From: a virus
DNA: 12,356 bases
UHGV virus genome: UHGV-0294568
Direction: 5' to 3' (one strand)
Below are positions 1-11,943 of the stretch, in pieces (the stretch's first letter is position 1; each line of letters opens with the position of its first letter). The notes below the pieces were generated by a model. That model was not told the DNA's origin and made no database searches. It worked only from the letters and a program-made list of their open reading frames with translations. The position numbers were made by a program, and so were the translations under genes.

Positions 1-518
1 GGCTGAGTGAGGCCGACCGGCGGCTGCAGGTGCAGAGTGATTTGCCGTGGTGGCTGGTCTGCCGGGGGACGATTCATAAGTTCCGCTGTGTGCCGCATCT
101 CACCGGGCGGCGCTTTGAGCACGGTGTGACGGACTGTTACACGCTGCTCCGGGATGCTTACCATCTGGCGGGAATTGAGATGCCTGATTTTCATCGTGAG
201 GATGACTGGTGGCGTAACGGCCAGAATCTCTATCTGGATAATCTGGAGGCGACGGGGCTGTATCAGGTGCCGTTGTCAGCGGCACAGCCGGGCGATGTGC
301 TGCTGTGCTGTTTTGGTTCATCGGTGCCGAATCACGCCGCAATTTACTGCGGCGACGGCGAGCTGCTGCACCATATTCCTGAACAACTGAGCAAACGAGA
401 GAGGTACACCGACAAATGGCAGCGACGCACACACTCCCTCTGGCGTCACCGGGCATGGCGCGCATCTGCCTTTACGGGGATTTGCAACGATTTGGCCGCC
501 GCATCGACCTTCGTGTGA
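1..518 (+). CDS. K: Tail assembly protein K, 5'-truncated by the window edge (C-terminal NlpC/P60-like part)
   Basis: Reading frame is open from base 3, so the track's GTG at 30 is not the true start. The product has a Cys/His signature typical of NlpC/P60 (GVTDCYTLLRDAY ... NHAAIYCGDGELLHH). The 3' end overlaps the I start by 103 nt, as I recall for lambda K/I. Confidence 0.8.
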   Translation, partial: LSEADRRLQVQSDLPWWLVCRGTIHKFRCVPHLTGRRFEHGVTDCYTLLRDAYHLAGIEMPDFHREDDWWRNGQNLYLDNLEATGLYQVPLSAAQPGDVLLCCFGSSVPNHAAIYCGDGELLHHIPEQLSKRERYTDKWQRRTHSLWRHRAWRASAFTGICNDLAAASTFV

Positions 519-1057
519 AAACGGGGGCCGAAGCCATCCGGGCGCTGGCCACACAGCTCCCGGCGTTTCGTCAGAAACTGAATGACGGCTGGTATCAGGT
601 GCGCATTGCCGGGCGTGATGCAGGTGAAACCGAATTATCTGCCCGTCTTAATGAGCCGCTGGCAAATGGTGCCGTGATCCACATCGTACCGCGTCTGGCG
701 GGTGCCAAAAGTGGCGGTATTTTTCAGGCAGTGCTGGGTGCGGCGCTAATTGCTACGGCAATCTGGATGCCGGGGCTTAGTATTGTTGCAAGTAATCTCA
801 TGTTCTCTCTTGGGGCAGGTATGGTTTTAGGCGGTGTTGCGCAGATGCTGGCACCGAAAGCCAAAACGCCTAAAGTGTCAGCCACTGATAACGGTAAGCA
901 AAATACCTATTTTTCCTCATTGGATAACATGGTTGCCCAGGGCAATGTCCTGCCTGTTCTGTACGGTGAAATGCGCGTTGGGTCACGTGTGGCATCTCAG
1001 GAGATCAGCACGGCAGATGAAGGGGATGGTGGTCAGGTTGTGGTAATTGGGCGGTAA
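416..1057 (+). CDS. I: Tail assembly protein I
   Basis: The 213-aa product begins MAATHTLPLASPGMARICLYGDLQRFGRRIDLRVKTGAEAIRALATQLPAFRQKL, matching my recollection of lambda gpI. It sits between K and J and has a hydrophobic C-terminal half. Confidence 0.9.
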   Translation: MAATHTLPLASPGMARICLYGDLQRFGRRIDLRVKTGAEAIRALATQLPAFRQKLNDGWYQVRIAGRDAGETELSARLNEPLANGAVIHIVPRLAGAKSGGIFQAVLGAALIATAIWMPGLSIVASNLMFSLGAGMVLGGVAQMLAPKAKTPKVSATDNGKQNTYFSSLDNMVAQGNVLPVLYGEMRVGSRVASQEISTADEGDGGQVVVIGR

Positions 1058-1129
1058 TATTATTTACTCATGTTCTAACTGATTTAATATTTATATCGAA
1101 CACTGATAATTATTCTGTTGGTTAGCTAT

Positions 1130-1468
1130 ATGAACAAAACGATTTTATTCTGCACGATTATTGCCTTAACAGGATGTAAATCTTTGGATTACGTAAAATC
1201 CGGCAAGCCTGTAATGGAAGGTAATTCATTAAAAAATATTGATGAATTGTCAGGCTGCATATCCAGACAATGGGCTGGTAATGGAACACCTATAACATCC
1301 ATTCCTATTGAGAATGGGGTAAGCCTTTTAGTTCCACAGGCTATGGGTGGGTATGATGTTGTGCTTGATATCAAAAAAGCAGGAAATGGCAGTAGTTTTA
1401 CTCTTTATGAACGCGTACCAGCATTAACGCCAAAAATTTTTGCTGATAGTGTTAATGCATGTAAATAA
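1130..1468 (+). CDS. Small lipoprotein of unknown function (moron inserted between I and J)
   Basis: ATG at 1130 gives MNKTILFCTIIALTGCKS, a signal peptide with lipobox LTGC. The track's upstream start at 1118 is TTG. The gene is visibly AT-rich relative to the flanking tail genes and has its own terminator. Lambda has no gene at this position. Confidence 0.6.
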   Translation: MNKTILFCTIIALTGCKSLDYVKSGKPVMEGNSLKNIDELSGCISRQWAGNGTPITSIPIENGVSLLVPQAMGGYDVVLDIKKAGNGSSFTLYERVPALTPKIFADSVNACK

Positions 1469-1492
1469 TAGTTAATCCTGCCGTAACTCATG

Positions 1493-1520
1493 AGCCGCCT
1501 TTTGGGCGGCTTTGTTGTTT
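1493..1520 (+). terminator. Rho-independent terminator-like hairpin after the lipoprotein gene
   Basis: AGCCGCC (1493-1499), loop TTTTG, GGCGGCT (1505-1511), then TTTGTTGTTT. It lies 15 nt upstream of the J start codon. Confidence 0.5.
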
Positions 1521-1534
1521 ATGGAGTGTGAGGA

Positions 1535-4500
1535 ATGGGTAAAGGTAGCAGTAAGGGGCATACCCCGCGCGAAGCGAAGGACAACCTGAAGTCCACGCAG
1601 TTGCTGAGTGTGATCGATGCCATCAGCGAAGGGCCGATTGAAGGTCCGGTGGATGGATTAAAAAGCGTGCTGCTGAACAGTACGCCAGTGCTGGACAGTG
1701 AGGGGAATACCAATATCTCCGGTGTCACGGTGGTGTTCCGGGCCGGTGAGCAGGAGCAGACACCGCCGGAGGGATTTGAATCCTCTGGCTCCGAGACGGT
1801 GCTGGGTACGGAAGTGAAATACGACACGCCGATCACCCGGACCATCACGTCGGCAAACATTGACCGACTGCGTTTTACCTTCGGCGTGCAGGCACTGGTG
1901 GAAACCACCTCAAAGGGGGACAGGAATCCGTCGGAAGTCCGCCTGCTGGTTCAGATCCAGCGTAATGGTGGCTGGGTGACGGAAAAAGACATCACCATTA
2001 AGGGCAAAACCACCTCGCAGTATCTGGCCTCGGTGGTGGTGGGTAACCTGCCGCCGCGCCCGTTCAATATACGGATGCGCAGGATGACGCCGGACAGCAC
2101 CACAGACCAGCTGCAGAACAAAACGCTCTGGTCGTCATACACCGAAATCATCGATGTGAAACAGTGCTACCCGAACACGGCACTGGTCGGCGTGCAGGTG
2201 GACTCGGAGCAGTTCGGCAGCCAGCAGGTGAGCCGTAATTATCATCTTCGCGGACGCATTCTGCAGGTGCCGTCGAACTATAACCCGCAGACGCGGCAAT
2301 ACAGCGGTATCTGGGACGGAACGTTTAAGCCAGCATACAGCAACAACATGGCCTGGTGTCTGTGGGATATGCTGACCCACCCGCGTTACGGCATGGGTAA
2401 ACGTCTTGGTGCGGCAGATGTGGATAAATGGGCGCTGTATGTCATCGGCCAGTGTTGCGACCAGTCGGTGCCGGACGGTTTTGGCGGCACGGAGCCGCGC
2501 ATCACCTGTAATGCCTGGCTGACCACACAGCGTAAGGTGTGGGATGTTCTCAGTGATTTCTGCTCGGCGATGCGCTGTATGCCGGTATGGAACGGGCAGA
2601 CGCTGACGTTCGTGCAGGACCGGCCATCAGATAAGGTGTGGACCTATAACCGCAGTAATGTGGTGATGCCGGATGATGGCGCGCCGTTCCGCTACAGCTT
2701 CAGCGCCCTGAAGGACCGCCATAATGCCGTTGAGGTGAACTGGATTGACCCGGACAACGGCTGGGAGACGGCGACAGAGCTTGTGGAGGATACGCAGGCC
2801 ATTGCCCGTTACGGTCGTAACGTCACGAAGATGGATGCCTTTGGCTGTACCAGCCGGGGGCAGGCACACCGCGCCGGGCTGTGGCTGATTAAAACGGAGC
2901 TGCTGGAAACGCAGACCGTGGACTTCAGCGTGGGTGCTGAAGGGCTTCGCCATGTACCGGGCGATGTCATTGAAATCTGCGATGATGACTATGTCGGTAT
3001 CAGCACCGGTGGTCGCGTGCTGGCGGTGAACAGCCAGACCCGGACGCTGACGCTCGACCGTGAAATCACGCTGCCATCCTCCGGTACCACGCTGATAAGC
3101 CTGGTTGACGGAAGTGGCAATCCGGTCAGCGTGGAGGTCCAGTCCGTCACCGACGGCGTGAAGGTAAAAGTGAGCCGTGTTCCTGACGGCGTTGCCGGAT
3201 ACAGCGTATGGGGGCTGAAGCTGCCGACGCTGCGCCAGCGCCTGTTCCGCTGCGTGAGTATCCGTGAGAACGATGACGGCACGTATGCCATCACCGCCGT
3301 GCAGCATGTACCGGAAAAAGAGGCCATCGTGGATAACGGGGCGCACTTTGACGGCGACCAGAGCGGCACGGTGAATGGTGTCACGCCGCCAGCAGTGCAG
3401 CATCTGACCGCCGAAGTCACCGCAGACAGCGGGGAATATCAGGTGCTGGCGCGCTGGGACACGCCGAAGGTGGTGAAGGGCGTGAGCTTCCTGCTCCGTC
3501 TGACCGTAACAGCGGATGACGGCAGTGAGTGGCTGGTCAGCACGGCCCGGACGACGGAAACCACTTACCGCTTCACACAACTGGCTCTGGGGAACTACAG
3601 GCTGACAGTCCGGGCAGTAAATGCATGGGGACAGCAGGGCGATCCGGCGTCGGTATCGTTCCGGATTGCCGCACCGGCAGCGCCGTCGCGGATTGAGCTG
3701 ACGCCGGGCTATTTTCAGATAACCGCCACGCCGCATCTTGCGGTTTATGATCCGACGGTACAGTTTGAGTTCTGGTTCTCGGAAAAGCGGATTACCGATA
3801 TCAGGCAGGTTGAAACCACAGCACGCTATCTTGGTACGGCGTTGTACTGGATAGCCGCCAGTATCAATATCAAACCGGGCCATAATTATTATTTTTACGT
3901 TCGCAGTGTGAACACCGTTGGCAAATCGGCATTCGTGGAGGCTGTTGGTCAGCCGAGTGATGACGCATCCGGCTATCTGGATTTTTTCAAAGGCGAGATA
4001 GGGAAAACCCATCTGGCTCAGGAGCTGTGGACGCAGATTGATAACGGTCAGCTTGCGCCTGACCTGGCTGAAATCAGGACATCCATTACGGATGTCAGCA
4101 ATGAAATCACACAGACCGTCAATAAGAAACTGGAAGACCAGAGTGCGGCAATTCAGCAGATACAGAAGGTTCAGGTTGATACAAATAATAACCTGAACAG
4201 CATGTGGGCTGTGAAGCTGCAGCAGATGCAGGACGGACGCCTTTATATCGCGGGTATTGGTGCCGGTATTGAGAACACCCCTGACGGCATGCAGAGTCAG
4301 GTGCTGCTGGCGGCAGACAGGATTGCGATGATTAATCCTGCGAATGGCAACACAAAGCCGATGTTTGTTGGTCAGGGCGATCAGATATTCATGAACGAAG
4401 TGTTCCTGAAACGCCTGACGGCTCCCACCATTACCAGCGGCGGTAATCCTCCGGTATTTTCCCTGACACCGGACGGGCGGCTGACGGCGAAAAATGCCGA

Positions 4501-5032
4501 TATCAGCGGTAACGTGAATGCGAACGCCGGGACGCTCAACAATGTCACGGTAAATGAAAACTGTACGATTAAGGGCATGCTGGAGGCGACTCAGGTCAGA
4601 GGTGACTTCGTTAAAGCTGTATCCAAATCATTCCCGAAACAGGCTGGTACGTGGGGTAACACGGAAACACCAAACGGGACGGTTACAGTCACCATCAGCG
4701 ATGATCATAACTTTGACCGTCAAATCATTATTCCACCCATTATCTTTAACGGAATAGCGTATAGCGATCCGGGAAGTGGTAATAACCCGGGAGGTACAAG
4801 ATACACGGGTTATGGTTTTGAAGTTCGCAAAAACGGTGTATTAATCGCATCCAGAGAAACTAAAGGGGCCATTCCCGGTAGCTACAGTGCGGTTATTGAT
4901 ATGCCGAGTGGCAGGGGAAGCGTCACTCTGGAGTTTAAGGTTTTCCATAAAGGCAATCAGTGGGCAGGTAATATCACCGACTGTACGGTGATTGTGACCA
5001 AAAAAGCTGCTTCCGGCATCAGTATTCGTTGA
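1535..5032 (+). CDS. J: Host specificity protein J (tail tip central fibre)
   Basis: The 1165-aa ORF starts [54 protein letters not shown], as I recall for lambda J. Size and position after I match the lambdoid order. GGAG lies 8 nt upstream of the ATG. Confidence 0.95.
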
Positions 5033-5053
5033 AGTTGTTATAACCCATATAAG

Positions 5054-5077
5054 GGCACCAGAAATGGTGCCTTTTTT
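5054..5077 (+). terminator. Rho-independent terminator after J
   Basis: GGCACC (5054-5059), loop AGAAAT, GGTGCC (5066-5071), then TTTTTT (5072-5077). Confidence 0.6.
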
Positions 5078-5101
5078 ATTGCAGAAAAGCGAGAGGTAAT
5101 T

Positions 5102-5701
5102 ATGCGTAAACTTTATGCCGCCATTTTGTCCGCAGCCATTTGTCTGGCCGTATCCGGTGCGCCTGCATGGGCATCTGAACATCAGTCCACGCTGAGCGCG
5201 GGGTATCTTCATGCCCGGACCAACGTTCCCGGCAGCGATGATCTGAACGGGATTAACGTGAAATACCGTTATGAGTTTACGGACACACTGGGGCTGGTGA
5301 CGTCATTCAGCTATGCAGGAGACAAGAATCGCCAGCTGACCCATTACAGCGATACCCGCTGGCATGAGGATTCCGTGCGTAACCGCTGGTTCAGCGTGAT
5401 GGCGGGGCCGTCTGTACGTGTGAATGAATGGTTCAGCGCGTATGCGATGGCAGGCGTGGCTTACAGCCGTGTGTCGACTTTTTCCGGGGATTATCTCCGC
5501 GTAACTGACAACAAGGGAAAAACGCACGACGTGCTGACCGGAAGTGATGACGCTCGCCACAGTAACACCTCTCTGGCGTGGGGAGCTGGCGTGCAGTTTA
5601 ACCCGACCGAATCCGTGGCCGTTGATGTCGCTTATGAAGGCTCCGGCAGTGGCAACTGGCGCACTGACGGGTTCATCGTGGGTGTCGGTTATAAGTTCTG
5701 A
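5102..5701 (+). CDS. lom: Lom outer membrane protein (Ail/Lom/PagC/Rck family beta-barrel)
   Basis: The 199-aa product has a signal peptide (MRKLYAAILSAAICLAVSGAPAWA) and ends in the aromatic residue F (GFIVGVGYKF), typical of OMP beta-barrels. It is at the lambda lom position between J and stf, with AGAGGT 5 nt upstream of the ATG. Confidence 0.85.
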   Translation: MRKLYAAILSAAICLAVSGAPAWASEHQSTLSAGYLHARTNVPGSDDLNGINVKYRYEFTDTLGLVTSFSYAGDKNRQLTHYSDTRWHEDSVRNRWFSVMAGPSVRVNEWFSAYAMAGVAYSRVSTFSGDYLRVTDNKGKTHDVLTGSDDARHSNTSLAWGAGVQFNPTESVAVDVAYEGSGSGNWRTDGFIVGVGYKF

Positions 5702-5727
5702 TTAGCCAGGTAACACAGTGTTATGAC

Positions 5728-5754
5728 AGCCCGCCGGTTCAGGCGGGCTTTTTT
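5728..5754 (+). terminator. Rho-independent terminator after lom
   Basis: AGCCCGCC (5728-5735), loop GGTTCA, GGCGGGCT (5742-5749), then TTTTT (5750-5754). Confidence 0.65.
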
Positions 5755-5765
5755 GTGGGGTGAAT

Positions 5766-8700
5766 ATGGCAGTAAAGATTTCAGGTGTACTGAAAGACGG
5801 TGCAGGTAAACCGGTACAGAACTGCACAATCCAGCTGAAAGCAAAACGTAACAGCACCACGGTGGTGGTGAACACGGTGGCATCTGAAAATCCGGATGAA
5901 GCCGGGCGTTACAGCATGGACGTTGAGTACGGTCAGTACAGCGTTATTCTGTTGGTGGAAGGATTCCCGCCGTCACATGCCGGGACCATCACCGTGTATG
6001 AAGATTCCCGACCCGGTACGCTGAATGATTTTCTCGGTGCCATGACGGAGGATGATGCCCGTCCGGAGGCACTGCGCCGCTTTGAACTGATGGTGGAAGA
6101 GGTGGCGCGTAACGCGTCCGCAGTGGCGCAGAACACAGCAGCCGCGAAGAAGTCAGCCAGCGATGCCGGCACATCAGCCCGTGAGGCGGCAACCCGTGCG
6201 ACTGATGCTGCAGGCTCAGCACGTGCAGCCAGCACGTCAGCCGGACAGGCCGCGTCGTCGGCTCAGTCAGCGTCTTCCAGCGCAGGAACGGCATCAGCAA
6301 AGGCTACTGAAGCATCAAAAAGTGCTGCCGCTGCAGAGTCTTCAAAAAGCGCGGCAGCCACCAGTGCCGGTGCAGCGAAAACGTCGGAAATGAATGCCGC
6401 AGCATCACAAAAATCTGCGGCCACATCTGCATCCACCGCGACCACGAAAGCGTCAGAAGCTGCCACCTCAGCCCGGGATGCGTCGGCTTCAAAAGTGGCG
6501 GCAAAATCATCAGAAACGAGCGCTGCCTCGAGCGCCGGCAGTGCAGCTTCCTCGGCAACGGCAGCAGGAAATTCCGCGAAGGCCGCAAAAACGTCTGAGA
6601 CGAATGCGGATAACAGCGCACAGGCGGCAGCAGACTCACAAACTGCATCGGCAAACTCCGCGACAGCAGCCAAAAAATCAGAAACCAACGCGAAAAATAG
6701 TGAGTCAGCAGCAAAGGTCAGCGAAACCAACGCTAAAGCGTCAGAGAACAAGGCGAAAGAATATCTCGACAAGGTCGGGGGACTCGTCAGCCCGATGACG
6801 CAATACGATTGGCCTGTTGTTACTGCTAGTGAGTCTCTTTACATCAAGATCGCGAAACTTTCCGATCCTGGAACCAGCAGAAGTCATGTAACGCTAATGG
6901 TTACTAACGCTGGTAACTACGGCTCCCCTTACGGAAACATTGACTTTATCGAGATCTCGGCGCGCGGTCTGCCTTCTTTGCTTAGTGCGGATAATGTTTC
7001 TCGTCATCTGAGTATACGCCGCTTAGGGTCAACCGGGCTGACCGATAACAACCAGATGCGTTACGGCCTGGTTAAAGGTGACGGCTTTATTGAGGTTTGG
7101 GCATTCCAGGGTGCGTTTATTAACGACGCAAAGGTTGCGGTGCTGGCGCAGACAACACTAAACACAGAATTATACATTCCAGACGGATTTGTTAAGCAAA
7201 CCGCCGCGCCTTCTGGATATATTGAAGGCAACGTTGTAAGGATTTACGACCAGGTAAACAAGCCGACTAAAGCAGATTTGGGCCTTTCTAATGCTATGCT
7301 TATAGGCGCTTTTGGTCTTGGCGGTAGCGGTCTTGTTTTGGATGGTAAAATGACCGATAAGGAACTACTACAAGAGCTAAGGGCGAAAGGTGGGTGTTTC
7401 TGGAGGTCAGGAAAACCAACAGGTAGCGAATCAACAATTTTCAGCCACGGTTCTGGTATATTCTCGCGGTGCGGCGATACGTGGTCAGCTATTAATATCG
7501 ATTACGAAAGCGGTAGAGTAAAGATTTACTCTAGTAACGATAATAGACTCAACAATGGTACTTTTAACATAAATGAGCTATACGGAACCAAATACAAGCC
7601 GTCGAAATCGGATGTTGGACTTGGTAACGTAACTAACGATGCGCAGGTGAAAAAATCCGGCGACATTATGTCAGGTAATCTGTCGATCACTAAAGCAACA
7701 CCTTCACTATTCCTGCGTTCAAAAAGTGGAACCGCCCATGTATGGTTCCAAAATGAGGATCAGTCGGAACGCGGCGTTATTTTTGCGCCTACAAATACTG
7801 ATACGCTTGGCGAAGTTCACATCAGGGCTAAAAACGCAAAAGGTCAATCAAGTGGTGATTTTATTGTTCGTCACGACGGGATGGTTGAAGCCCGTGATCT
7901 CACATTAGCGGGTAAAACTAAAGGCGCAAAAGCAGAATTTGCAAACACAAGCACTAGATCCGATGATACTACGGTAAGCATAAAAGGATCTCAGCATACT
8001 CCTCTGGTTTTAACGCGCAACAACACAATTAAAAATTTATCCATTGGGTTTAAGGTTGATGACGTTGACCAAAAATATCTCGGCATATACGGTGACGGTG
8101 ATTTGTATTTTGGTGGTTATTCTGACCACACAAAAAACAGCAAAGTAATTACACAAGCAATACTCGATAGCGGGGTAACGGTAGGCGGCAAAACAACATT
8201 TTCTGACCTTGCCACATTTAACGCAGGTATGTCTGGGCCTATCGAGCCGGAAGCCATTGAAGGCATGACTATCGATCTTAATGACCTTATCATTAAGTTC
8301 ACGGATAAAGGTTCAGTTAAATACTATCACTGCAAAACTGCCGGAGGCGGTTCGAATATTACCAATAAGCCTGACGGCGTAGGCGGCAACTTTTTGCTTC
8401 GTGTAGAGTCAATTCGTAAGGTTAGTGATTCAGATTATATAAACATGCAAACGCTGATTAGCGGCGACAAAGGACGCGTGCATGTTCGTTTTGTTACTAA
8501 TGGTAATTGGACAGCATGGAGCGAGCATGTTGTTTCAGGATGGAATCAGGATGTGACCGTCAGGTCGTTAACCTCGACGACTCCATCAAAATTAGGCGGC
8601 GGGCGTGTTGATGTGCTGGGGAGTACGTCAGATTACAGTAGTATGAATTGTGCTGTGCGCGGTGTTGATAGCACTGGAACCAATTCGGCGTGGTCAGTAG

Positions 8701-9527
8701 GTACATCGGAAAACACGGGAAAAATGTTGTGCCTTAAAAACCACAGAAGCAGCGCTCAAGTGCTGTTAAATGGCGATGATGGCGCGGTGCAACTACTAAG
8801 CGGTACTGTCAACGGTGCTACAGCACAGGCGCTAACCATCAACAAAGATGAGGTTAACTCAACTGCTGATTTAGTAATTAGAAAACAGTCAGGGACTGGC
8901 AATCGTTTTGTTTTAAAGAACGCAGGTAATGCAGAACTACCGTTTAACATCAGTGTATGGGGTTCAAGTGATCGACAAAACGTTTTTGAGGTTGGAACGT
9001 CTGCTGCGTATCTGTTTTATGCGCAAAGAACGCCAGCAGGCCAGTTGTTTGATGTAAATGGCGCTATTAATTGCACAACGCTGAATCAGTCATCAGACCG
9101 CGACCTTAAAGACGATATTCTCGTTATCAGCGACGCGACGAAAGCAATCCGCAAAATGAACGGGTACACCTACACGCTCAAGGAAAACGGCCTTCCTTAT
9201 GCTGGCGTTATTGCACAGGAAGTAATGGAGGCGCTACCGGAAGCCGTAGGATCGTTTACTCGTTACGGTGAAGAATTGCAGGGTCCGACCATTGATGGCA
9301 ACGAGCTACGCGAAGAAACGCGTTACCTCAATGTTGATTATGCGGCGGTGACTGGTTTACTTGTCCAGGTCGCCCGTGAAACAGATGATCGCGTTACCGC
9401 GCTGGAAGAGGAAAACACAACGCTACGTCAAAATCTGGCAACAGCAGACACCCGGATCAGCACTCTGGAAAATCAGGTAAGCGAACTGGTTGCACTTGTC
9501 CGGCAGTTAACAGGAAGCGAACATTGA
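5766..9527 (+). CDS. stf: Side tail fibre protein, mosaic: lambda Stf-like N-terminus, Ala/Ser/Thr-rich repeat block, divergent distal region, C-terminal intramolecular-chaperone (peptidase S74-like) domain
   Basis: ATG at 5766 gives MAVKISGVLKDGAGKPVQNCTIQLKAKRNSTTVVVNTVASENPDEAGRYSMDVEYGQYSV, as I recall for lambda Stf; the track start at 5760 is GTG. The C-terminus has SSDRDLKDDILVIS ... GYTYTLKENG followed by a heptad-like coiled coil (LEEENTTLRQNLATADTRISTLENQVSELVALVRQL), as in self-cleaving chaperone domains of endosialidase-type fibres. GC drops after about 6780. Confidence 0.85.
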   Translation: MAVKISGVLKDGAGKPVQNCTIQLKAKRNSTTVVVNTVASENPDEAGRYSMDVEYGQYSVILLVEGFPPSHAGTITVYEDSRPGTLNDFLGAMTEDDARPEALRRFELMVEEVARNASAVAQNTAAAKKSASDAGTSAREAATRATDAAGSARAASTSAGQAASSAQSASSSAGTASAKATEASKSAAAAESSKSAAATSAGAAKTSEMNAAASQKSAATSASTATTKASEAATSARDASASKVAAKSSETSAASSAGSAASSATAAGNSAKAAKTSETNADNSAQAAADSQTASANSATAAKKSETNAKNSESAAKVSETNAKASENKAKEYLDKVGGLVSPMTQYDWPVVTASESLYIKIAKLSDPGTSRSHVTLMVTNAGNYGSPYGNIDFIEISARGLPSLLSADNVSRHLSIRRLGSTGLTDNNQMRYGLVKGDGFIEVWAFQGAFINDAKVAVLAQTTLNTELYIPDGFVKQTAAPSGYIEGNVVRIYDQVNKPTKADLGLSNAMLIGAFGLGGSGLVLDGKMTDKELLQELRAKGGCFWRSGKPTGSESTIFSHGSGIFSRCGDTWSAINIDYESGRVKIYSSNDNRLNNGTFNINELYGTKYKPSKSDVGLGNVTNDAQVKKSGDIMSGNLSITKATPSLFLRSKSGTAHVWFQNEDQSERGVIFAPTNTDTLGEVHIRAKNAKGQSSGDFIVRHDGMVEARDLTLAGKTKGAKAEFANTSTRSDDTTVSIKGSQHTPLVLTRNNTIKNLSIGFKVDDVDQKYLGIYGDGDLYFGGYSDHTKNSKVITQAILDSGVTVGGKTTFSDLATFNAGMSGPIEPEAIEGMTIDLNDLIIKFTDKGSVKYYHCKTAGGGSNITNKPDGVGGNFLLRVESIRKVSDSDYINMQTLISGDKGRVHVRFVTNGNWTAWSEHVVSGWNQDVTVRSLTSTTPSKLGGGRVDVLGSTSDYSSMNCAVRGVDSTGTNSAWSVGTSENTGKMLCLKNHRSSAQVLLNGDDGAVQLLSGTVNGATAQALTINKDEVNSTADLVIRKQSGTGNRFVLKNAGNAELPFNISVWGSSDRQNVFEVGTSAAYLFYAQRTPAGQLFDVNGAINCTTLNQSSDRDLKDDILVISDATKAIRKMNGYTYTLKENGLPYAGVIAQEVMEALPEAVGSFTRYGEELQGPTIDGNELREETRYLNVDYAAVTGLLVQVARETDDRVTALEEENTTLRQNLATADTRISTLENQVSELVALVRQLTGSEH
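6111..6760 (+). repeat. Low-complexity imperfect tandem repeats inside stf (Ala/Ser/Thr-rich, recurring AAK(T/K)SETNA-like units)
   Basis: Protein residues about 118-335 are almost entirely A/S/T/K/E, with recurring units AAKTSEMNAAAS, AAKTSETNADNS, AAKKSETNAKNS and AKVSETNAKAS. The track's antisense ORFs here are composition artefacts. Confidence 0.6.
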
Positions 9528-9710
9528 TATCCTTCAAGCTCTGAAGGAGGCTGTTCCCGGTACGTTCAGACTGTTGTTGAGCTGGAGATCGCAACGGAGG
9601 AAGAAACCTCATTGCTGGAAGCCTGGAAAAAGTATCGGGTGTTGCTGAACCGTGTTGATACATCAACTGCACCTGATATTGAGTGGCCTGCGGTCCCTGT
9701 TATGGAGTAA
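9528..9710 (+). pseudogene. tfa: 3' remnant of a tail fibre assembly gene, in frame immediately after the stf stop codon, with no start codon of its own
   Basis: The 60 codons after the stf TGA (9525-9527) read [60 protein letters not shown], ending at TAA 9708-9710. The [26 protein letters not shown] tail matches what I recall of enterobacterial Tfa C-termini. Confidence 0.5.
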
Positions 9711-9724
9711 TCGTTTTGTGATAT

Positions 9725-9758
9725 GCCGCAGCAACTTGTCATGGCAGGATACTGCGGC
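9725..9758. other. Inverted repeat (7-bp stem, 21-nt loop) downstream of the tfa remnant; weak terminator candidate
   Basis: GCCGCAG (9725-9731) and CTGCGGC (9752-9758). The loop contains GGCAGGATA. The downstream sequence TGATTTGTGAATTT is only moderately T-rich. Confidence 0.3.
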
Positions 9759-9893
9759 TGATTTGTGAATTTAAATAGTGTGTTTATTGCTTTATATATA
9801 AAGGATTTAATGGATTACATATCTATGATATCCCTGAAATGTCCTCTTCAAGCTCTTTTACTGATTTCGCAATTTTAAATTTAAATTTTCTCT

Positions 9894-11192
9894 CTATTTC
9901 ACTATTGCTAAGTTTTTTTCATTCTCTTTCCCTATCCACATAGAAACAATTTCTCGTTTCTGAGATATATGTAGATTGTCAAAGTTAGGTATGTATTTAA
10001 AAGTCTCCGCTCTACCCCTGCGGAGTTCATAGAAAGTTTTAATCAAAGACTTTGGTTTTATTTCTGATGAAAGGCCGAATCGGCGGATAAGATTATTGAT
10101 CGTATGATTAACAGCTCGAAGTTGAGCTGTTGACGTTATTTGTGAGAAGTACGATACCCATCCCAATCGTTTACCTTCAAACACACATCCCGTAATTCTA
10201 AGATTTAGTTTCCACTGACAATATGCAACAGCTCGTTCTTTATCGCGCTTATTTTTAGCTTGTAGTAGAGCGTGTCTATATGCAGTAAAAATTTTTGCTA
10301 AGGATGACTCAAATCTAAGAATGCTCTCATGTTTTATCAATAATTCTCGATTTTTTATGTGGTAGCCCAAAAAGTTGAAACTTTCATCCAAGCTGCCTAC
10401 TTTGGATTTTGAGTTCTCTTCATTTAATGGATGTGGGTTTAAATTTAATGATTGAAGCTTATCAATGATATGAGAAGCTATTTTTGTTGCTTGATATTTT
10501 GGTGTTAAAATAAGAATGTCATCAACGTATCGCATGTACCATATGTCATGCATTTTATTGATTTCATCATCGAAATTAGATAGTGATATTTCAGCTAAAA
10601 TGTTTGATATCGCTAATCCCTGAGGTACTCCTCTGGTATTATTAGGGATACCTTTGCTTCCTGTGGTTCCACTTACAGTAGGCACGATTAATGATGATGT
10701 TATTAACTGTCTAATTTCTTTTTTTCTAATTTTATTTTTTATTGCATTAATTATCAATTTATGTTCAATTGAAGGATAGAAACTTTTAAGATCTATTTTT
10801 GCATATTCAGCATATAGACTGTTGTTTAATGCTTCTTTCAATGAGTCAATTACTGTATGTGGTAGTTTTAATCTGGACTTAGGATATATTTCCGTAAGGC
10901 ATTCACAGAGAGCTCTAAGAGTAATTCTGTCCCTAGCAGTTGGTATGGAAATCTGTCTGGGTGTAGAGTTAGCGCCTTTAGATATTAATTTTTCTTTATA
11001 TGCTGTAAATTTGTAATTGCCAGAATTAACCTTTTCAAAAATGAAAGTGATCTCATTTTTTATTGTCAAATCAAGTTTTGATGGGCGAATCCGATCTATG
11101 CCAATCGCTCCTGATTCTTTGATTTTTTCAGAGTATACTTTTAGAAGATTTTTTTTCGAGAATGACTTTTTAAAAATTCTGCTTGCAGTCAT
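9894..11192 (-). CDS. Reverse transcriptase, compact single-domain type (fingers-palm-thumb), family unassigned
   Basis: RT motifs are readable in order: GIDRI; RQISIPTARDRITLRAL; IDLKSFYPSIEH; GVPQGLAISNILAE; YMRYVDDILIL; FNFLGYHI; and a thumb-like RLGWVSYF. The track start at 11198 is TTG; the first ATG is at 11192. The 5' end overlaps the upstream membrane-protein gene by 23 nt. Sampled lines are about 22-33% GC, against about 57% in one J line. Confidence 0.85.
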   Translation of the reverse strand: MTASRIFKKSFSKKNLLKVYSEKIKESGAIGIDRIRPSKLDLTIKNEITFIFEKVNSGNYKFTAYKEKLISKGANSTPRQISIPTARDRITLRALCECLTEIYPKSRLKLPHTVIDSLKEALNNSLYAEYAKIDLKSFYPSIEHKLIINAIKNKIRKKEIRQLITSSLIVPTVSGTTGSKGIPNNTRGVPQGLAISNILAEISLSNFDDEINKMHDIWYMRYVDDILILTPKYQATKIASHIIDKLQSLNLNPHPLNEENSKSKVGSLDESFNFLGYHIKNRELLIKHESILRFESSLAKIFTAYRHALLQAKNKRDKERAVAYCQWKLNLRITGCVFEGKRLGWVSYFSQITSTAQLRAVNHTINNLIRRFGLSSEIKPKSLIKTFYELRRGRAETFKYIPNFDNLHISQKREIVSMWIGKENEKNLAIVK

Positions 11193-11721
11193 AGTCAATC
11201 CAAAGATATATTAATGGGAGTATATAAAGTGCGGCAGTAATAAATATTCGAAGTAATATCCATAAAATAACAATTATTTTTTCTTTTTGTGTGGGGATCC
11301 TCGTCTTAAGTCCAACTTGAGTTACCCTTGAAATTTTATCATCTATGTCACGGTGATTCTCAACCTCATTGAGCAAATTAAAATATTTTTCTTTCTGTTC
11401 AAGAGATAACTGTTGACTGGTGGTAATGTCAAAATAGAGTCGCTGTAGTGCAATATAATTCCTTCTCATGGCTATTGCTCGACCACGAAAATCTAGGTTA
11501 GATACGATCAGAGAAATACCCAGTAGAGCCACTGAAAGTATCGCCGCAACGACATCTGTATTATCTCCTAGAACCTTTGGAAATCGCAACGTTACAATTG
11601 AAAGTACCGCACTCAATATAGCATACCAAACGAGGATAAATTGAGAGTGTTTTTCAAGCCATTCTAGTCGATGGTGCGCTTGGATACGTGCTTTATATGT
11701 AAACCAAATATTGTCATGCAT
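11170..11721 (-). CDS. Multi-pass membrane protein (2TM N-terminal module plus long C-terminal hydrophobic segment), candidate effector partner of the RT
   Basis: The 183-aa product has hydrophobic segments at about residues 27-45 (FILVWYAILSAVLSIVTL), 56-74 (VVAAILSVALLGISLIVS) and 148-175 (IIVILWILLRIFITAALYILPLIYLWI), with a basic helix between. AAGGA lies about 6 nt upstream of the ATG. It shares AT-richness and strand with the RT. Confidence 0.55.
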   Translation of the reverse strand: MHDNIWFTYKARIQAHHRLEWLEKHSQFILVWYAILSAVLSIVTLRFPKVLGDNTDVVAAILSVALLGISLIVSNLDFRGRAIAMRRNYIALQRLYFDITTSQQLSLEQKEKYFNLLNEVENHRDIDDKISRVTQVGLKTRIPTQKEKIIVILWILLRIFITAALYILPLIYLWIDYDCKQNF

Positions 11722-11743
11722 AAAAGATCCTTTTTAAAAGCGG

Positions 11744-11873
11744 AAGGGGCAGGATATATTGGAACCGTTGAACATCCTGCCCGGCAGGATCAGTGAGCAT
11801 AAGCTCAACAGTAAAATATTACTGTTCATTATCAGAGCCGCCCTTGCATGCGCAAGAGGAAAAACCTGCCCCA
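11744..11873 (-). ncRNA. Candidate structured non-coding leader RNA upstream of the membrane-protein/RT genes (hypothetical)
   Basis: On the - strand, GGGGCAGG near the 5' end (complement of 11865-11872) and CCTGCCCC near the 3' end (complement of 11746-11753) bracket about 110 nt. Inside are the hairpins CTTGC-GCAT-GCAAG and AACAGTAA-TATT-TTACTGTT and the 17-bp palindrome. No ORF is present. No folding or homology search was done. Confidence 0.2.
11774..11790. promoter_or_regulatory. Perfect 17-bp palindrome ATCCTGCC-C-GGCAGGAT in the leader of the membrane-protein/RT operon
   Basis: Read directly: 11774-11781 ATCCTGCC, 11782 C, 11783-11790 GGCAGGAT. A third copy of GGCAGGAT at 11748-11755 can pair with 11774-11781 across an 18-nt loop. 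Confidence 0.3.
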
Positions 11874-11880
11874 TCCCTTT

Positions 11881-11912
11881 GAATTATTACAATTTAATGA
11901 TCTTAAAGTCAA
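11881..11912 (-). promoter_or_regulatory. Putative sigma70-like promoter for the leader/membrane-protein/RT transcript
   Basis: The - strand reads TTGACT (complement of 11907-11912), a 15-17 nt spacer, then TGTAAT/TAATAA (complement of about 11884-11892). Only a pattern match. Confidence 0.25.
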
Positions 11913-11943
11913 TACAAGTGAATGGTGTCCAGAGATGATGAAC

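Follow-up and report, generated by a model that had tools for sequence, protein, structure and literature searches.

What kind of gene occupies positions 5766..9527 of this viral DNA, and why is its stop codon followed in frame by codons which resemble the end of a tfa gene? The window, as we call the whole stretch of 12,356 nucleotides analyzed here (UHGV virus genome UHGV-0294568), carries at this place a side tail fibre gene, stf. It is listed as an open reading frame of 1253 codons plus a TGA stop at 9525–9527, and its translation starts with the ATG at 5766 (MAVKISG...), with an alternative GTG at 5760. All features described below are on the plus strand. Upstream we find I, J (with six gpJ Pfam domains) and Lom, and stf directly follows J and lom, as in a lambda-like tail operon. 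The prophage which carries it is lambda-like and integrated, and adjoins dusA. Phage Ayreon has a side tail fibre which is 97–98% identical to this one over its full length. Side tail fibres of this sort are ordinary and widespread among E. coli prophages, and the mosaic is of a common kind which has already been annotated. The reading that we favour, and consider highly probable, is that of a functional modular fibre with a lambda-type anchor and a self-chaperoning distal end, in which tfa has been left as a scar.

The N-terminal attachment domain (aa 1–134, 5766..6167) is of lambda type. It matches Pfam PF08400 (phage_tail_N) with 240.5 bits, E 5.4e-72, for a cutoff of 26.6 bits, and the solved N-terminus of lambda Stf (PDB 9e7m) matches aa 1–94 at 3e-51. 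Then comes an Ala/Ser/Thr-rich shaft (aa ~115–335, 6108..6770), recognized by its composition (A+S+T of 0.70–0.80 per 50-aa window) and likewise present in lambda Stf. An initial annotation, made from the sequence alone, had described a lambda-like N-terminus of some 110 residues followed by an Ala/Ser-rich block. Both are real, but the block itself is lambda-like too, and the lambda-like part extends to about 284 aa. In fact, aa 1–284 are 86% identical to lambda orf-401 and the DNA shared with lambda covers 5567–6607 (85%) and 9565–9739, which places the lambda breakpoint near 6607, not at residue ~110. The same annotation had noticed that the DNA becomes less GC-rich after about 6780, and the values are 0.56–0.62 at 5800–6800 versus 0.42–0.48 at 6800–9000. 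The gene is not uniformly lambda-like: we have detected no similarity to orf-314, the distal part of lambda Stf, anywhere in stf (best E 1.7). The J–lom–stf locus is the same as that of the Stf and Tfa of Ur-lambda (orf-401/orf-314/orf-194). Nevertheless, lambda has the distal orf-314 and an intact Tfa, whereas the window has an unrelated distal half, a start-less tfa scar and a built-in chaperone on which folding is expected to rely. Since similarity to orf-314 is absent and Tfa is reduced to aa 147–194, the gene is classified as Stf by its anchor and its locus, not by its distal half.

Past the shaft, the fibre contains a variable middle cassette (aa ~325–931, 6740..8558) built from globular domains rich in beta structure, among them a pyocin-knob-like one, most probably at aa ~830–925 (8253–8540). 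The knobs of R2-type pyocin tail fibres (6CU2, 6CL6) are only 10–14% identical to the window fibre, and these chains are absent from the structure matches of the S74 chaperone described below. A parallel beta-helix catalytic domain, the criterion for a tailspike depolymerase, was not found in the fibre. The cassette is followed by a conserved distal tip (aa ~931–1109, 8559..9092), directly ahead of the predicted cleavage site. This tip is common to phage mEp460 and many other fibres, with 75–88% protein identity, regardless of the middle cassette. Many fibres have aa 1–~410 and aa 908/929–1253 in common and different middles, with total lengths of 828–1369 aa. The DNA comparisons have the same pattern: mEp460 shares 5001–6739 and 8559–9687 with the window, and PhiR70_1 shares 5015–6739 and 9084–9688; position 9084 coincides with the boundary of the chaperone. 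For the lambda fibre, binding to OmpC has been reported. It is reasonable to suppose that the secondary receptor has changed with respect to lambda, and the new one would be of glycan or LPS type.

The C-terminus is an intramolecular chaperone of the peptidase S74 type (aa 1110–1253, 9093..9524). Pfam PF13884 (Peptidase_S74) matches aa 1110–1161 of 1253 with 47.4 bits, E 2.4e-12, for a cutoff of 22 bits. The SDRDLK motif, which had already suggested such a domain together with a coiled coil, corresponds to aa 1110–1115, with S1110 and K1115 predicted to be catalytic. All of 47 diverse relatives, some with as little as 26% identity, have D1111 and K1115, and at least 90% of them have S1110. An AF2 monomer model has a pLDDT of ~86–97 over the chaperone part, with a long helix at its C-terminal end (aa ~1192–1249), and a Foldseek search with the predicted fold finds 3gw6, 7dc3 and 3gud, each with probability 1.00. 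S74 homology is thus present by sequence, by the conserved Ser and Lys and by predicted fold. The S74 domains of K1F endosialidase (3GW6), GA-1 gp12 (3GUD), the T5 L-shaped fibre pb1 (4UW8) and MyRF ICA (7DC3) share with the window chaperone the Pfam family, the S-D-x-x-x-K pattern, the predicted fold and a C-terminal place after a trimeric fibre. They differ in sequence (12–25% identity), and the cargo is here a lambdoid side fibre, not a tailspike or a T5 fibre. The chaperone would cleave itself between S1109 and S1110 with a Ser1110/Lys1115 dyad, and the fibre would probably not depend on Tfa in vivo. Lambda PaPa is viable without Stf, so the plating of Ayreon on K-12 does not imply that the fibre is assembled.

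Could this stf be a relic of a decaying prophage, with no working fibre? In NZ_CP010371, PGAP divides the gene into a pseudogene fragment and a 267-aa CDS, as expected for a relic. This division is an annotation artefact: the 1253-codon reading frame is uninterrupted. Full-length versions with 84–97% identity are abundant, and fibres of the same family are present in phages which have been isolated (Ayreon, mEp460 and PhiR70_1). Variation in the chaperone is also strongly biased towards third positions, with 23/20/65 variable sites at the three codon positions (144 sites each). We consider decay very improbable.

The second part of the question is the DNA behind the chaperone. Homology to the chaperones of mEp021-like phages stops at ...GGAAGCGAA (9521). 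The next segment is a linker (9522..9563), which closes the fibre gene with a final CAT codon and the TGA stop and continues for 36 nt up to the tfa homology. The stop is found in a non-homologous linker, just beyond the end of the chaperone homology. After it, 60 codons continue in frame up to a TAA at 9708–9710, and their 5' end lacks a canonical start codon. The match to intact Tfa genes begins only at codon 13 of this stretch, that is, at 9564/9565. The remnant proper (9564..9710) consists of the last 48 tfa codons plus TAA, in their native frame: codons 13–60 are 88% identical (42/48) to aa 147–194 of lambda Tfa, and these codons with the ~30 nt beyond are 88–92% identical to lambda. Only positions 86–130 of the 131 of Pfam Caudo_TAP (PF02413) are matched, at 1.7e-20. 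PGAP labels the remnant as a pseudogene, "incomplete; missing N-terminus", and in fact it does not have the complete PF02413 domain and the start codon of its own which define a Tfa. The start-less, Tfa-like stretch of the initial annotation is thus real, with Tfa homology limited to the last 48 of its 60 codons. As for an intact tfa elsewhere, tblastn with lambda Tfa finds none in the window, nor in a nearly identical prophage region of 28 kb, nor in the entire Ayreon genome; in the three sequences only aa 147–194 are recovered, and no tfa is annotated in Ayreon.

The junction is not a peculiarity of this prophage. The TGA, the linker and the remnant are common, with few substitutions, to four phage or prophage references. 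They are also present, again with few substitutions, in 56 of the 57 copies we have retrieved. Our estimate of linker conservation is biased, since the loci were fetched with a pattern drawn from the linker itself. Phages Ayreon, mEp460 and PhiR70_1 have this junction, as do 51 IMG/VR contigs and 804–805 of the 5426 complete E. coli genomes (~15%), where it occupies 1377 places. Carrying genomes have a median of 2 copies, and up to 5, with intact tfa genes alongside. The linker is seen solely in the context of the stf-tfa scar (805 genomes). The same joint across phages, contigs and genomes comes from one ancestral event. The earlier suggestion of a recombination which brought in a new cassette and truncated tfa is supported by these data. 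We can add that the junction is old and of single origin, neither recent nor private to this prophage.

A single origin also removes any statistical weight from the in-frame placement of the remnant. By chance it would be in frame in ~1/3 of cases and the 12 linker codons would be free of stops with a probability of ~0.56, so that both together have a probability of ~0.2, roughly 1 in 5. This agrees with the earlier remark that the placement might be fortuitous. Another explanation is programmed readthrough of the TGA, which would produce a functional fusion of chaperone, linker and Tfa remnant, for example an extended chaperone. The 60 sense codons without interruption and the same frame and stop in 56 of 57 copies are what such a mechanism would need. 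But all copies come from one junction, and conservation of the frame is then a matter of inheritance, not of selection. Both polymorphisms in the linker would change an amino acid (S/P and R/W), a frameshift is present in one remnant (L017) and remnant ends are freely swapped. Variation in the remnant is less biased by codon position than variation in the chaperone: the remnant core has 14/14/18 variable sites (40 sites of each position). Nucleotide diversity in the remnant is still higher at third positions (pi 0.150 versus 0.062 and 0.091 at positions 1 and 2), which indicates that some coding-type variation persists; its probable source is recombination with tfa alleles that are intact. RNA structure past the stop is not significant (z -0.40), and the base following TGA is T. 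A T in this position is a context of efficient termination in E. coli. In any case, the extension would ride on the fragment freed at S1110 and would be unable to reach the virion. The initial annotation had already given readthrough little chance; with a single origin, a weak codon bias and a product which would be cleaved off, it is exceedingly unlikely to matter.

Translation of the remnant alone, with an internal start codon and a mini-Tfa as its product, seems equally implausible. A Shine-Dalgarno-like GAAGGAGG is found at 9543–9550, although no ATG, GTG or TTG lies 5–13 nt from it. There is also an in-frame TTG at 9609 with GGAGGA ahead, but this arrangement is plain tfa coding sequence (TEEE) and is also found inside intact tfa genes. 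The product would contain only the C-terminal part of Caudo_TAP mentioned above, the PGAP call is that of a pseudogene, and copies with a frameshift or variable truncation exist. Furthermore, the distal Stf of lambda type (orf-314), the sole partner of Tfa known at this locus, is absent.

The untranslated scar of our preferred reading may nevertheless be of some use. A possible refinement, compatible with it and of rather low probability, is second-order selection: the scar would be kept as useful non-coding DNA, a right-hand homology arm which together with a 3' hairpin allows cassettes of the chaperone type to enter and leave tfa-type lambdoid prophages by recombination. At least seven different Tfa-type C-termini are represented among the mosaic 3' ends of the remnants, so crossovers do occur within the remnant. 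A neutral scar in a recombination-rich region would equally show mosaic ends. The scar persists where the adjacent chaperone has diverged by up to ~14% in its DNA, and the multiple copies per genome, together with intact tfa genes, provide recombination partners. Recombination in tfa homology has been seen experimentally: lambda and defective prophages exchange sequences of the stf/tfa region by homologous recombination (PMC3945230). There are also tfa scars with other junctions, as in phage 2G7b. Nevertheless, these data do not separate selection from hitch-hiking, and the conservation of the linker suffers from the retrieval bias already mentioned. The hairpin itself is GC-rich (9725..9758, -20.3 kcal/mol, z -1.84) and lies partly inside the lambda-homologous stretch past tfa, where similarity reaches 9739. 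It is not called in a consensus terminator scan; the late transcript may end here. A related suggestion, to which we would give a similar, rather low probability, is that the single-origin scar, the conserved chaperone and the conserved N-terminal shaft are a maintained "adapter" which provides self-chaperoning receptor-binding cassettes with a right-hand homology arm to tfa-type lambdoid prophages. If true, it would account for the presence of one junction in ~15% of E. coli genomes, combined with many different middle cassettes.

Comparison with other phages helps to trace the origin of the parts. Ayreon (MF807953) has the same architecture and the same TGA-linker-tfa scar, and its 97–98% identity covers both fibre and scar. 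The same architecture and scar are found in mEp460 (NC_019716), with aa 1–331 and 929–1253 in common, and in PhiR70_1 (PV340577), with the N-terminus and the chaperone in common. The middle receptor-binding cassettes differ, and so does the cargo downstream of the scar. The mEp021-like phages and contigs (for example MagusPhagus, PP925836, 95%; IMG/VR loci L122–L139) have chaperones 77–85% identical to that of the window, and at one of these loci (L125) the fibre is 78% identical to aa 273–1253. Their fibre genes, however, end in ...TGSEE/K-TAA, followed by a true stem-loop/T-run terminator, with no linker and no tfa scar. The full-length fibres recovered from this group have no match to the lambda-type N-terminal anchor. 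A related chaperone, with TAA and a terminator and free of the scar, makes these fibres a pointer to the donor pool.

From these results we propose the following scheme. The N-terminal ~134 aa dock the trimer to the tail tip, as in lambda Stf, with the shaft next. The distal ~920 aa come from a pool of fibre cassettes which is shared with mEp021-like temperate phages, and partly with T5-like phages. The chaperone would drive trimer folding of the distal fibre and then cut itself off at the predicted site, leaving a mature fibre of 1109 aa and freeing a 144-aa fragment. With such a built-in chaperone to fold the distal fibre, a separate Tfa would be unneeded. An ancestral lambdoid stf-tfa locus took in such a cassette with the right-hand illegitimate joint within tfa, and an untranslated scar stayed behind: the 36-nt linker and then the last 48 codons of tfa. 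This joint arose once and later spread. Interchangeable receptor-binding cassettes now sit between the conserved N-terminus with the shaft, to the left, and the chaperone with the tfa scar, to the right, and both flanks would most likely act as homology arms for later swaps.

The practical value of these results is limited, and they leave current understanding unchanged. For annotation, the 1253-codon stf should be kept as one CDS, which PGAP divides in some genomes, while the 60 codons after it stay a pseudogene. The K1F tail protein has an S74 chaperone. For phage engineering, lambda Stf N-termini with self-chaperoning distal regions already occur naturally, and the left flank, conserved to ~6739, and the right flank, conserved from 9084, mark natural swap points for host-range cassettes which need no Tfa partner. 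An engineered fusion of the lambda Stf N-terminus with the K1F tail protein gives a working delivery particle (Brodel et al. 2024, PMC11338833); this chimera is man-made and joined at lambda residue S528, while the window fibre leaves lambda at about aa 284. For phage evolution, this is a clean case of one illegitimate joint which then spread by homologous recombination, with mEp021-like and T5-like fibres as a plausible donor pool.

The stf gene is a single uninterrupted reading frame of 1253 codons, from an ATG at 5766 (MAVKISG...) to a TGA at 9525–9527. Its front half is lambda-like. Residues 1–134 match the Pfam prophage tail fibre N-terminal domain (5.4e-72) and residues 1–94 match the solved N-terminus of lambda Stf. 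The initial annotation had placed the limit of this likeness at about residue 110, which is too early: the protein is 86% identical to lambda over residues 1–284 and the DNA similarity covers 5567–6607, so that the break from lambda lies near 6607. The Ala/Ser/Thr-rich block is found where expected, at about residues 115–335, and is itself lambda-like. We have found no DNA tandem repeats of note in this block, whose repetitiveness is confined to the protein level. The fall in GC content noticed after about 6780 is also real, from 0.56–0.62 to 0.42–0.48 past about 6800. In E. coli 6409 (NZ_CP010371), PGAP splits the same reading frame (12001–15762 of locus L001, equivalent to 5766–9527) into a pseudogene labelled "partial, missing C-terminus" and a separate CDS of 267 amino acids. 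In other genomes the frame is split and named differently. The PGAP split is an annotation artefact.

The gene is not lambda-like throughout. No similarity to orf-314, the distal half of lambda Stf, has been detected, and the segment replaced relative to lambda is 6608–9564. Tfa homology resumes only at codon 13 of the tfa remnant which follows the stf stop codon, in agreement with the proposal of a swapped-in distal cassette and a truncated tfa. The window shares blocks 5001–6739 and 8559–9687 with phage mEp460, and 5015–6739 and 9084–9688 with PhiR70_1, 9084 being the chaperone domain boundary. The ends of these blocks divide stf into four modules, all on the plus strand: an anchor and shaft shared with both phages (to about 6739), a variable middle cassette (6740–8558), a conserved tip (8559–9092) and a chaperone (9093–9524). 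We have scanned IMG/VR with the pattern of the linker between stf and the remnant, recovering 51 loci. Many of their fibres vary in the middle part and keep residues 1 to about 410 and 908/929–1253; total lengths range from 828 to 1369 amino acids.

The C-terminal module is well supported. A Peptidase_S74 match (47.4 bits, cutoff 22) begins at the SDRDLK motif (residues 1110–1115), as the suggestion of a self-cleaving chaperone had implied. We have aligned 47 diverse relatives, with identities as low as 26%: D1111 and K1115 never vary, and S1110 is conserved in at least 90% of them. An AlphaFold2 model of residues 904–1253 has a mean pLDDT of 78 (about 86–97 over the chaperone) and ends in a long helix. 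Its top PDB matches, each with a probability of 1.00, are the endosialidase intramolecular chaperone (3GW6), the MyRF ICA domain (7DC3) and the chaperone of GA-1 gp12 (3GUD). Profile searches also find MyRF and the C-terminus of phage S16 gp37. The PDB profile search gave depolymerase matches as well, which we have rejected: its alignment was partly contaminated by unrelated N-termini of the aligned proteins, and only matches in the C-terminal region were used. NCBIfam gave no useful fibre match. Domains of the S74 type are reportedly cleaved just before the catalytic serine. Cleavage before S1110 would yield a mature fibre of 1109 amino acids and a freed fragment of 144. The best-supported reading is that stf encodes a working, self-chaperoning side fibre.

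After the TGA there are 60 in-frame sense codons without a start codon, up to a TAA at 9708–9710, as first described. Their Tfa likeness lies in codons 13–60, 88% identical to residues 147–194 of lambda Tfa, and they cover no more than the final third of the Caudo_TAP profile. Intact Tfa genes align only from codon 13 (9564/9565). The window, Ayreon, mEp460 and PhiR70_1 share the TGA, the 36 nt linker and the remnant, with only minor substitutions between them. When the 51 IMG/VR loci are pooled with the reference loci, 56 of the 57 copies have this arrangement. Among 5426 complete E. coli genomes, 804–805 have it too, at a total of 1377 sites. Such uniformity means that the junction arose in one old event. 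The in-frame placement, which had been thought possibly due to chance, is then a single draw, with a probability of roughly 1/3 times about 0.56 (twelve stop-free linker codons). The one exception (L037, IMG/VR 2908572912_000001, reverse strand around 3739) joins lom at about codon 44 (...NGINVKY) to the linker and scar, and stf is gone; it is a deletion fusing lom to the linker, not a different upstream context. The linker is found in no other context. We have rejected its conservation as a sign of function because the sampling is biased: the IMG/VR search used a pattern derived from the linker, and a 46 nt BLAST query recovers near-identical copies only. The lambdoid phage 2G7b (NC_049954; 5001–5117 and 5900–6198 of locus L059) has an unannotated tfa 3' remnant with a different junction, matching from remnant codon 22. 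This remnant stands after a different fibre gene set, with more tfa fragments beyond a methyltransferase gene, so that tfa scars recur in the lambdoid fibre region.

The evidence says that the remnant is not used. It has no canonical start codon, and none lies in range of the GAAGGAGG motif (9543–9550). Both linker polymorphisms would change amino acids, one remnant copy is frameshifted, and the remnants end in at least seven different Tfa-type C-termini. Variable sites at the three codon positions number 23/20/65 in the chaperone (144 each) and 14/14/18 in the remnant core (40 each); the mild third-position excess left in the latter fits variation imported from intact tfa alleles. Downstream of the stf stop there is no RNA structure of note: a CCUUCA...UGAAGG hairpin in the linker does not differ appreciably from shuffled sequence (z -0.40). 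The TGA is followed by T, an efficient termination context, and any readthrough extension would stay on the fragment predicted to be cleaved away. We have also looked for an intact tfa in phase with this fibre: neither the window nor the 28 kb prophage region has one, nor does the complete genome of Ayreon, whose fibre is 97–98% identical. Ayreon grows on K-12, but this is no proof of side fibre assembly, since lambda PaPa has no side fibre and grows all the same.

The window covers the tail end of a lambda-like prophage of E. coli. Encoded on its plus strand are tail assembly gene I (416–1057), J with six gpJ Pfam domains (1535–5032) and, upstream of stf, lom (5102–5701). Between I and J, a small ORF of 116 amino acids (1118–1468, phrog_914, unknown function) lies in a low-GC pocket (0.375–0.43); RefSeq labels it a hypothetical protein and Pfam gives no match. 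The dusA-adjacent prophage of E. coli 6409 is 99.2% identical overall and 100% identical across 5766–9710. Of the 93 mismatches, nearly all are located in the K/I/J region (1–3800), so the recent history of the fibre gene differs from that of the tail-tip genes. A consensus scan of 9300–10000 found neither promoter nor terminator. Directly 3' of the scar, an AT-rich block (9740–11940, GC 0.29–0.36) carries a UG17-type defence reverse transcriptase and its SLATT partner on the minus strand (9894–11198 and 11170–11721; PADLOC RT_UG17 7.8e-151, RTasSLATT 3.5e-56; Pfam SLATT_5). In mEp460 dinI directly follows the scar, which makes this block inserted cargo. A homopolymer at about 9913–9919 is T7 here and T8 in E. 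coli 6409, so that the reverse transcriptase frame has a different 3' end (434 amino acids here, 456 in RefSeq); this is either a genuine frameshift or a sequencing error.

With the chaperone protein as query, we have found 80 loci in IMG/VR. In 49 of them the scar is preceded by the exact linker pattern, and in another (L118) by a linker with one substitution; 14 are too near a contig edge to judge. The remaining 16 (within L122–L139) have no scar. Their chaperones are 77–85% identical, and the reading frame ends in ...TGSEE/K-TAA with a stem-loop and T-run directly after. The contigs of these 16 match mEp021-like temperate phages (MagusPhagus, 95%), and part of the fibre matches the L-shaped fibre of T5-like Bf23. 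Homology between the lambdoid and scar-less chaperones ends at ...GGAAGCGAA (9521), so that both the final codon of lambdoid stf and its TGA belong to the linker. The fibre of one terminator-type locus, L125, is 78% identical to residues 273–1253; the entire distal region is thus common to the lambdoid and mEp021-like groups.

The exact sequence and the domain names are already in RefSeq, which lists the scar as a tfa pseudogene, and isolated phages built in this way have been in public databases for years. In the freely accessible literature, we have found no paper on the tfa scar or on lambda-like Stf proteins of natural origin with a chaperone of this type. What we see is ordinary mosaicism of tail fibres, which is already known. 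The idea of a fibre made mosaic by recombination holds as regards the swap, but the junction is old and widely shared. An ancestor would have gained the distal part when illegitimate recombination brought it into an stf-tfa locus of the lambda type, an event which would also have truncated tfa. The scar may be kept for its use as a homology arm, or simply because it does no harm. Experiments have measured homologous exchange between lambda and defective prophages in the stf/tfa region (PMC3945230), and an engineered lambda-K1F Stf chimera is functional (PMC11338833). In natural phages of this design, the conserved flanks most likely now permit homologous exchange of receptor-binding modules.
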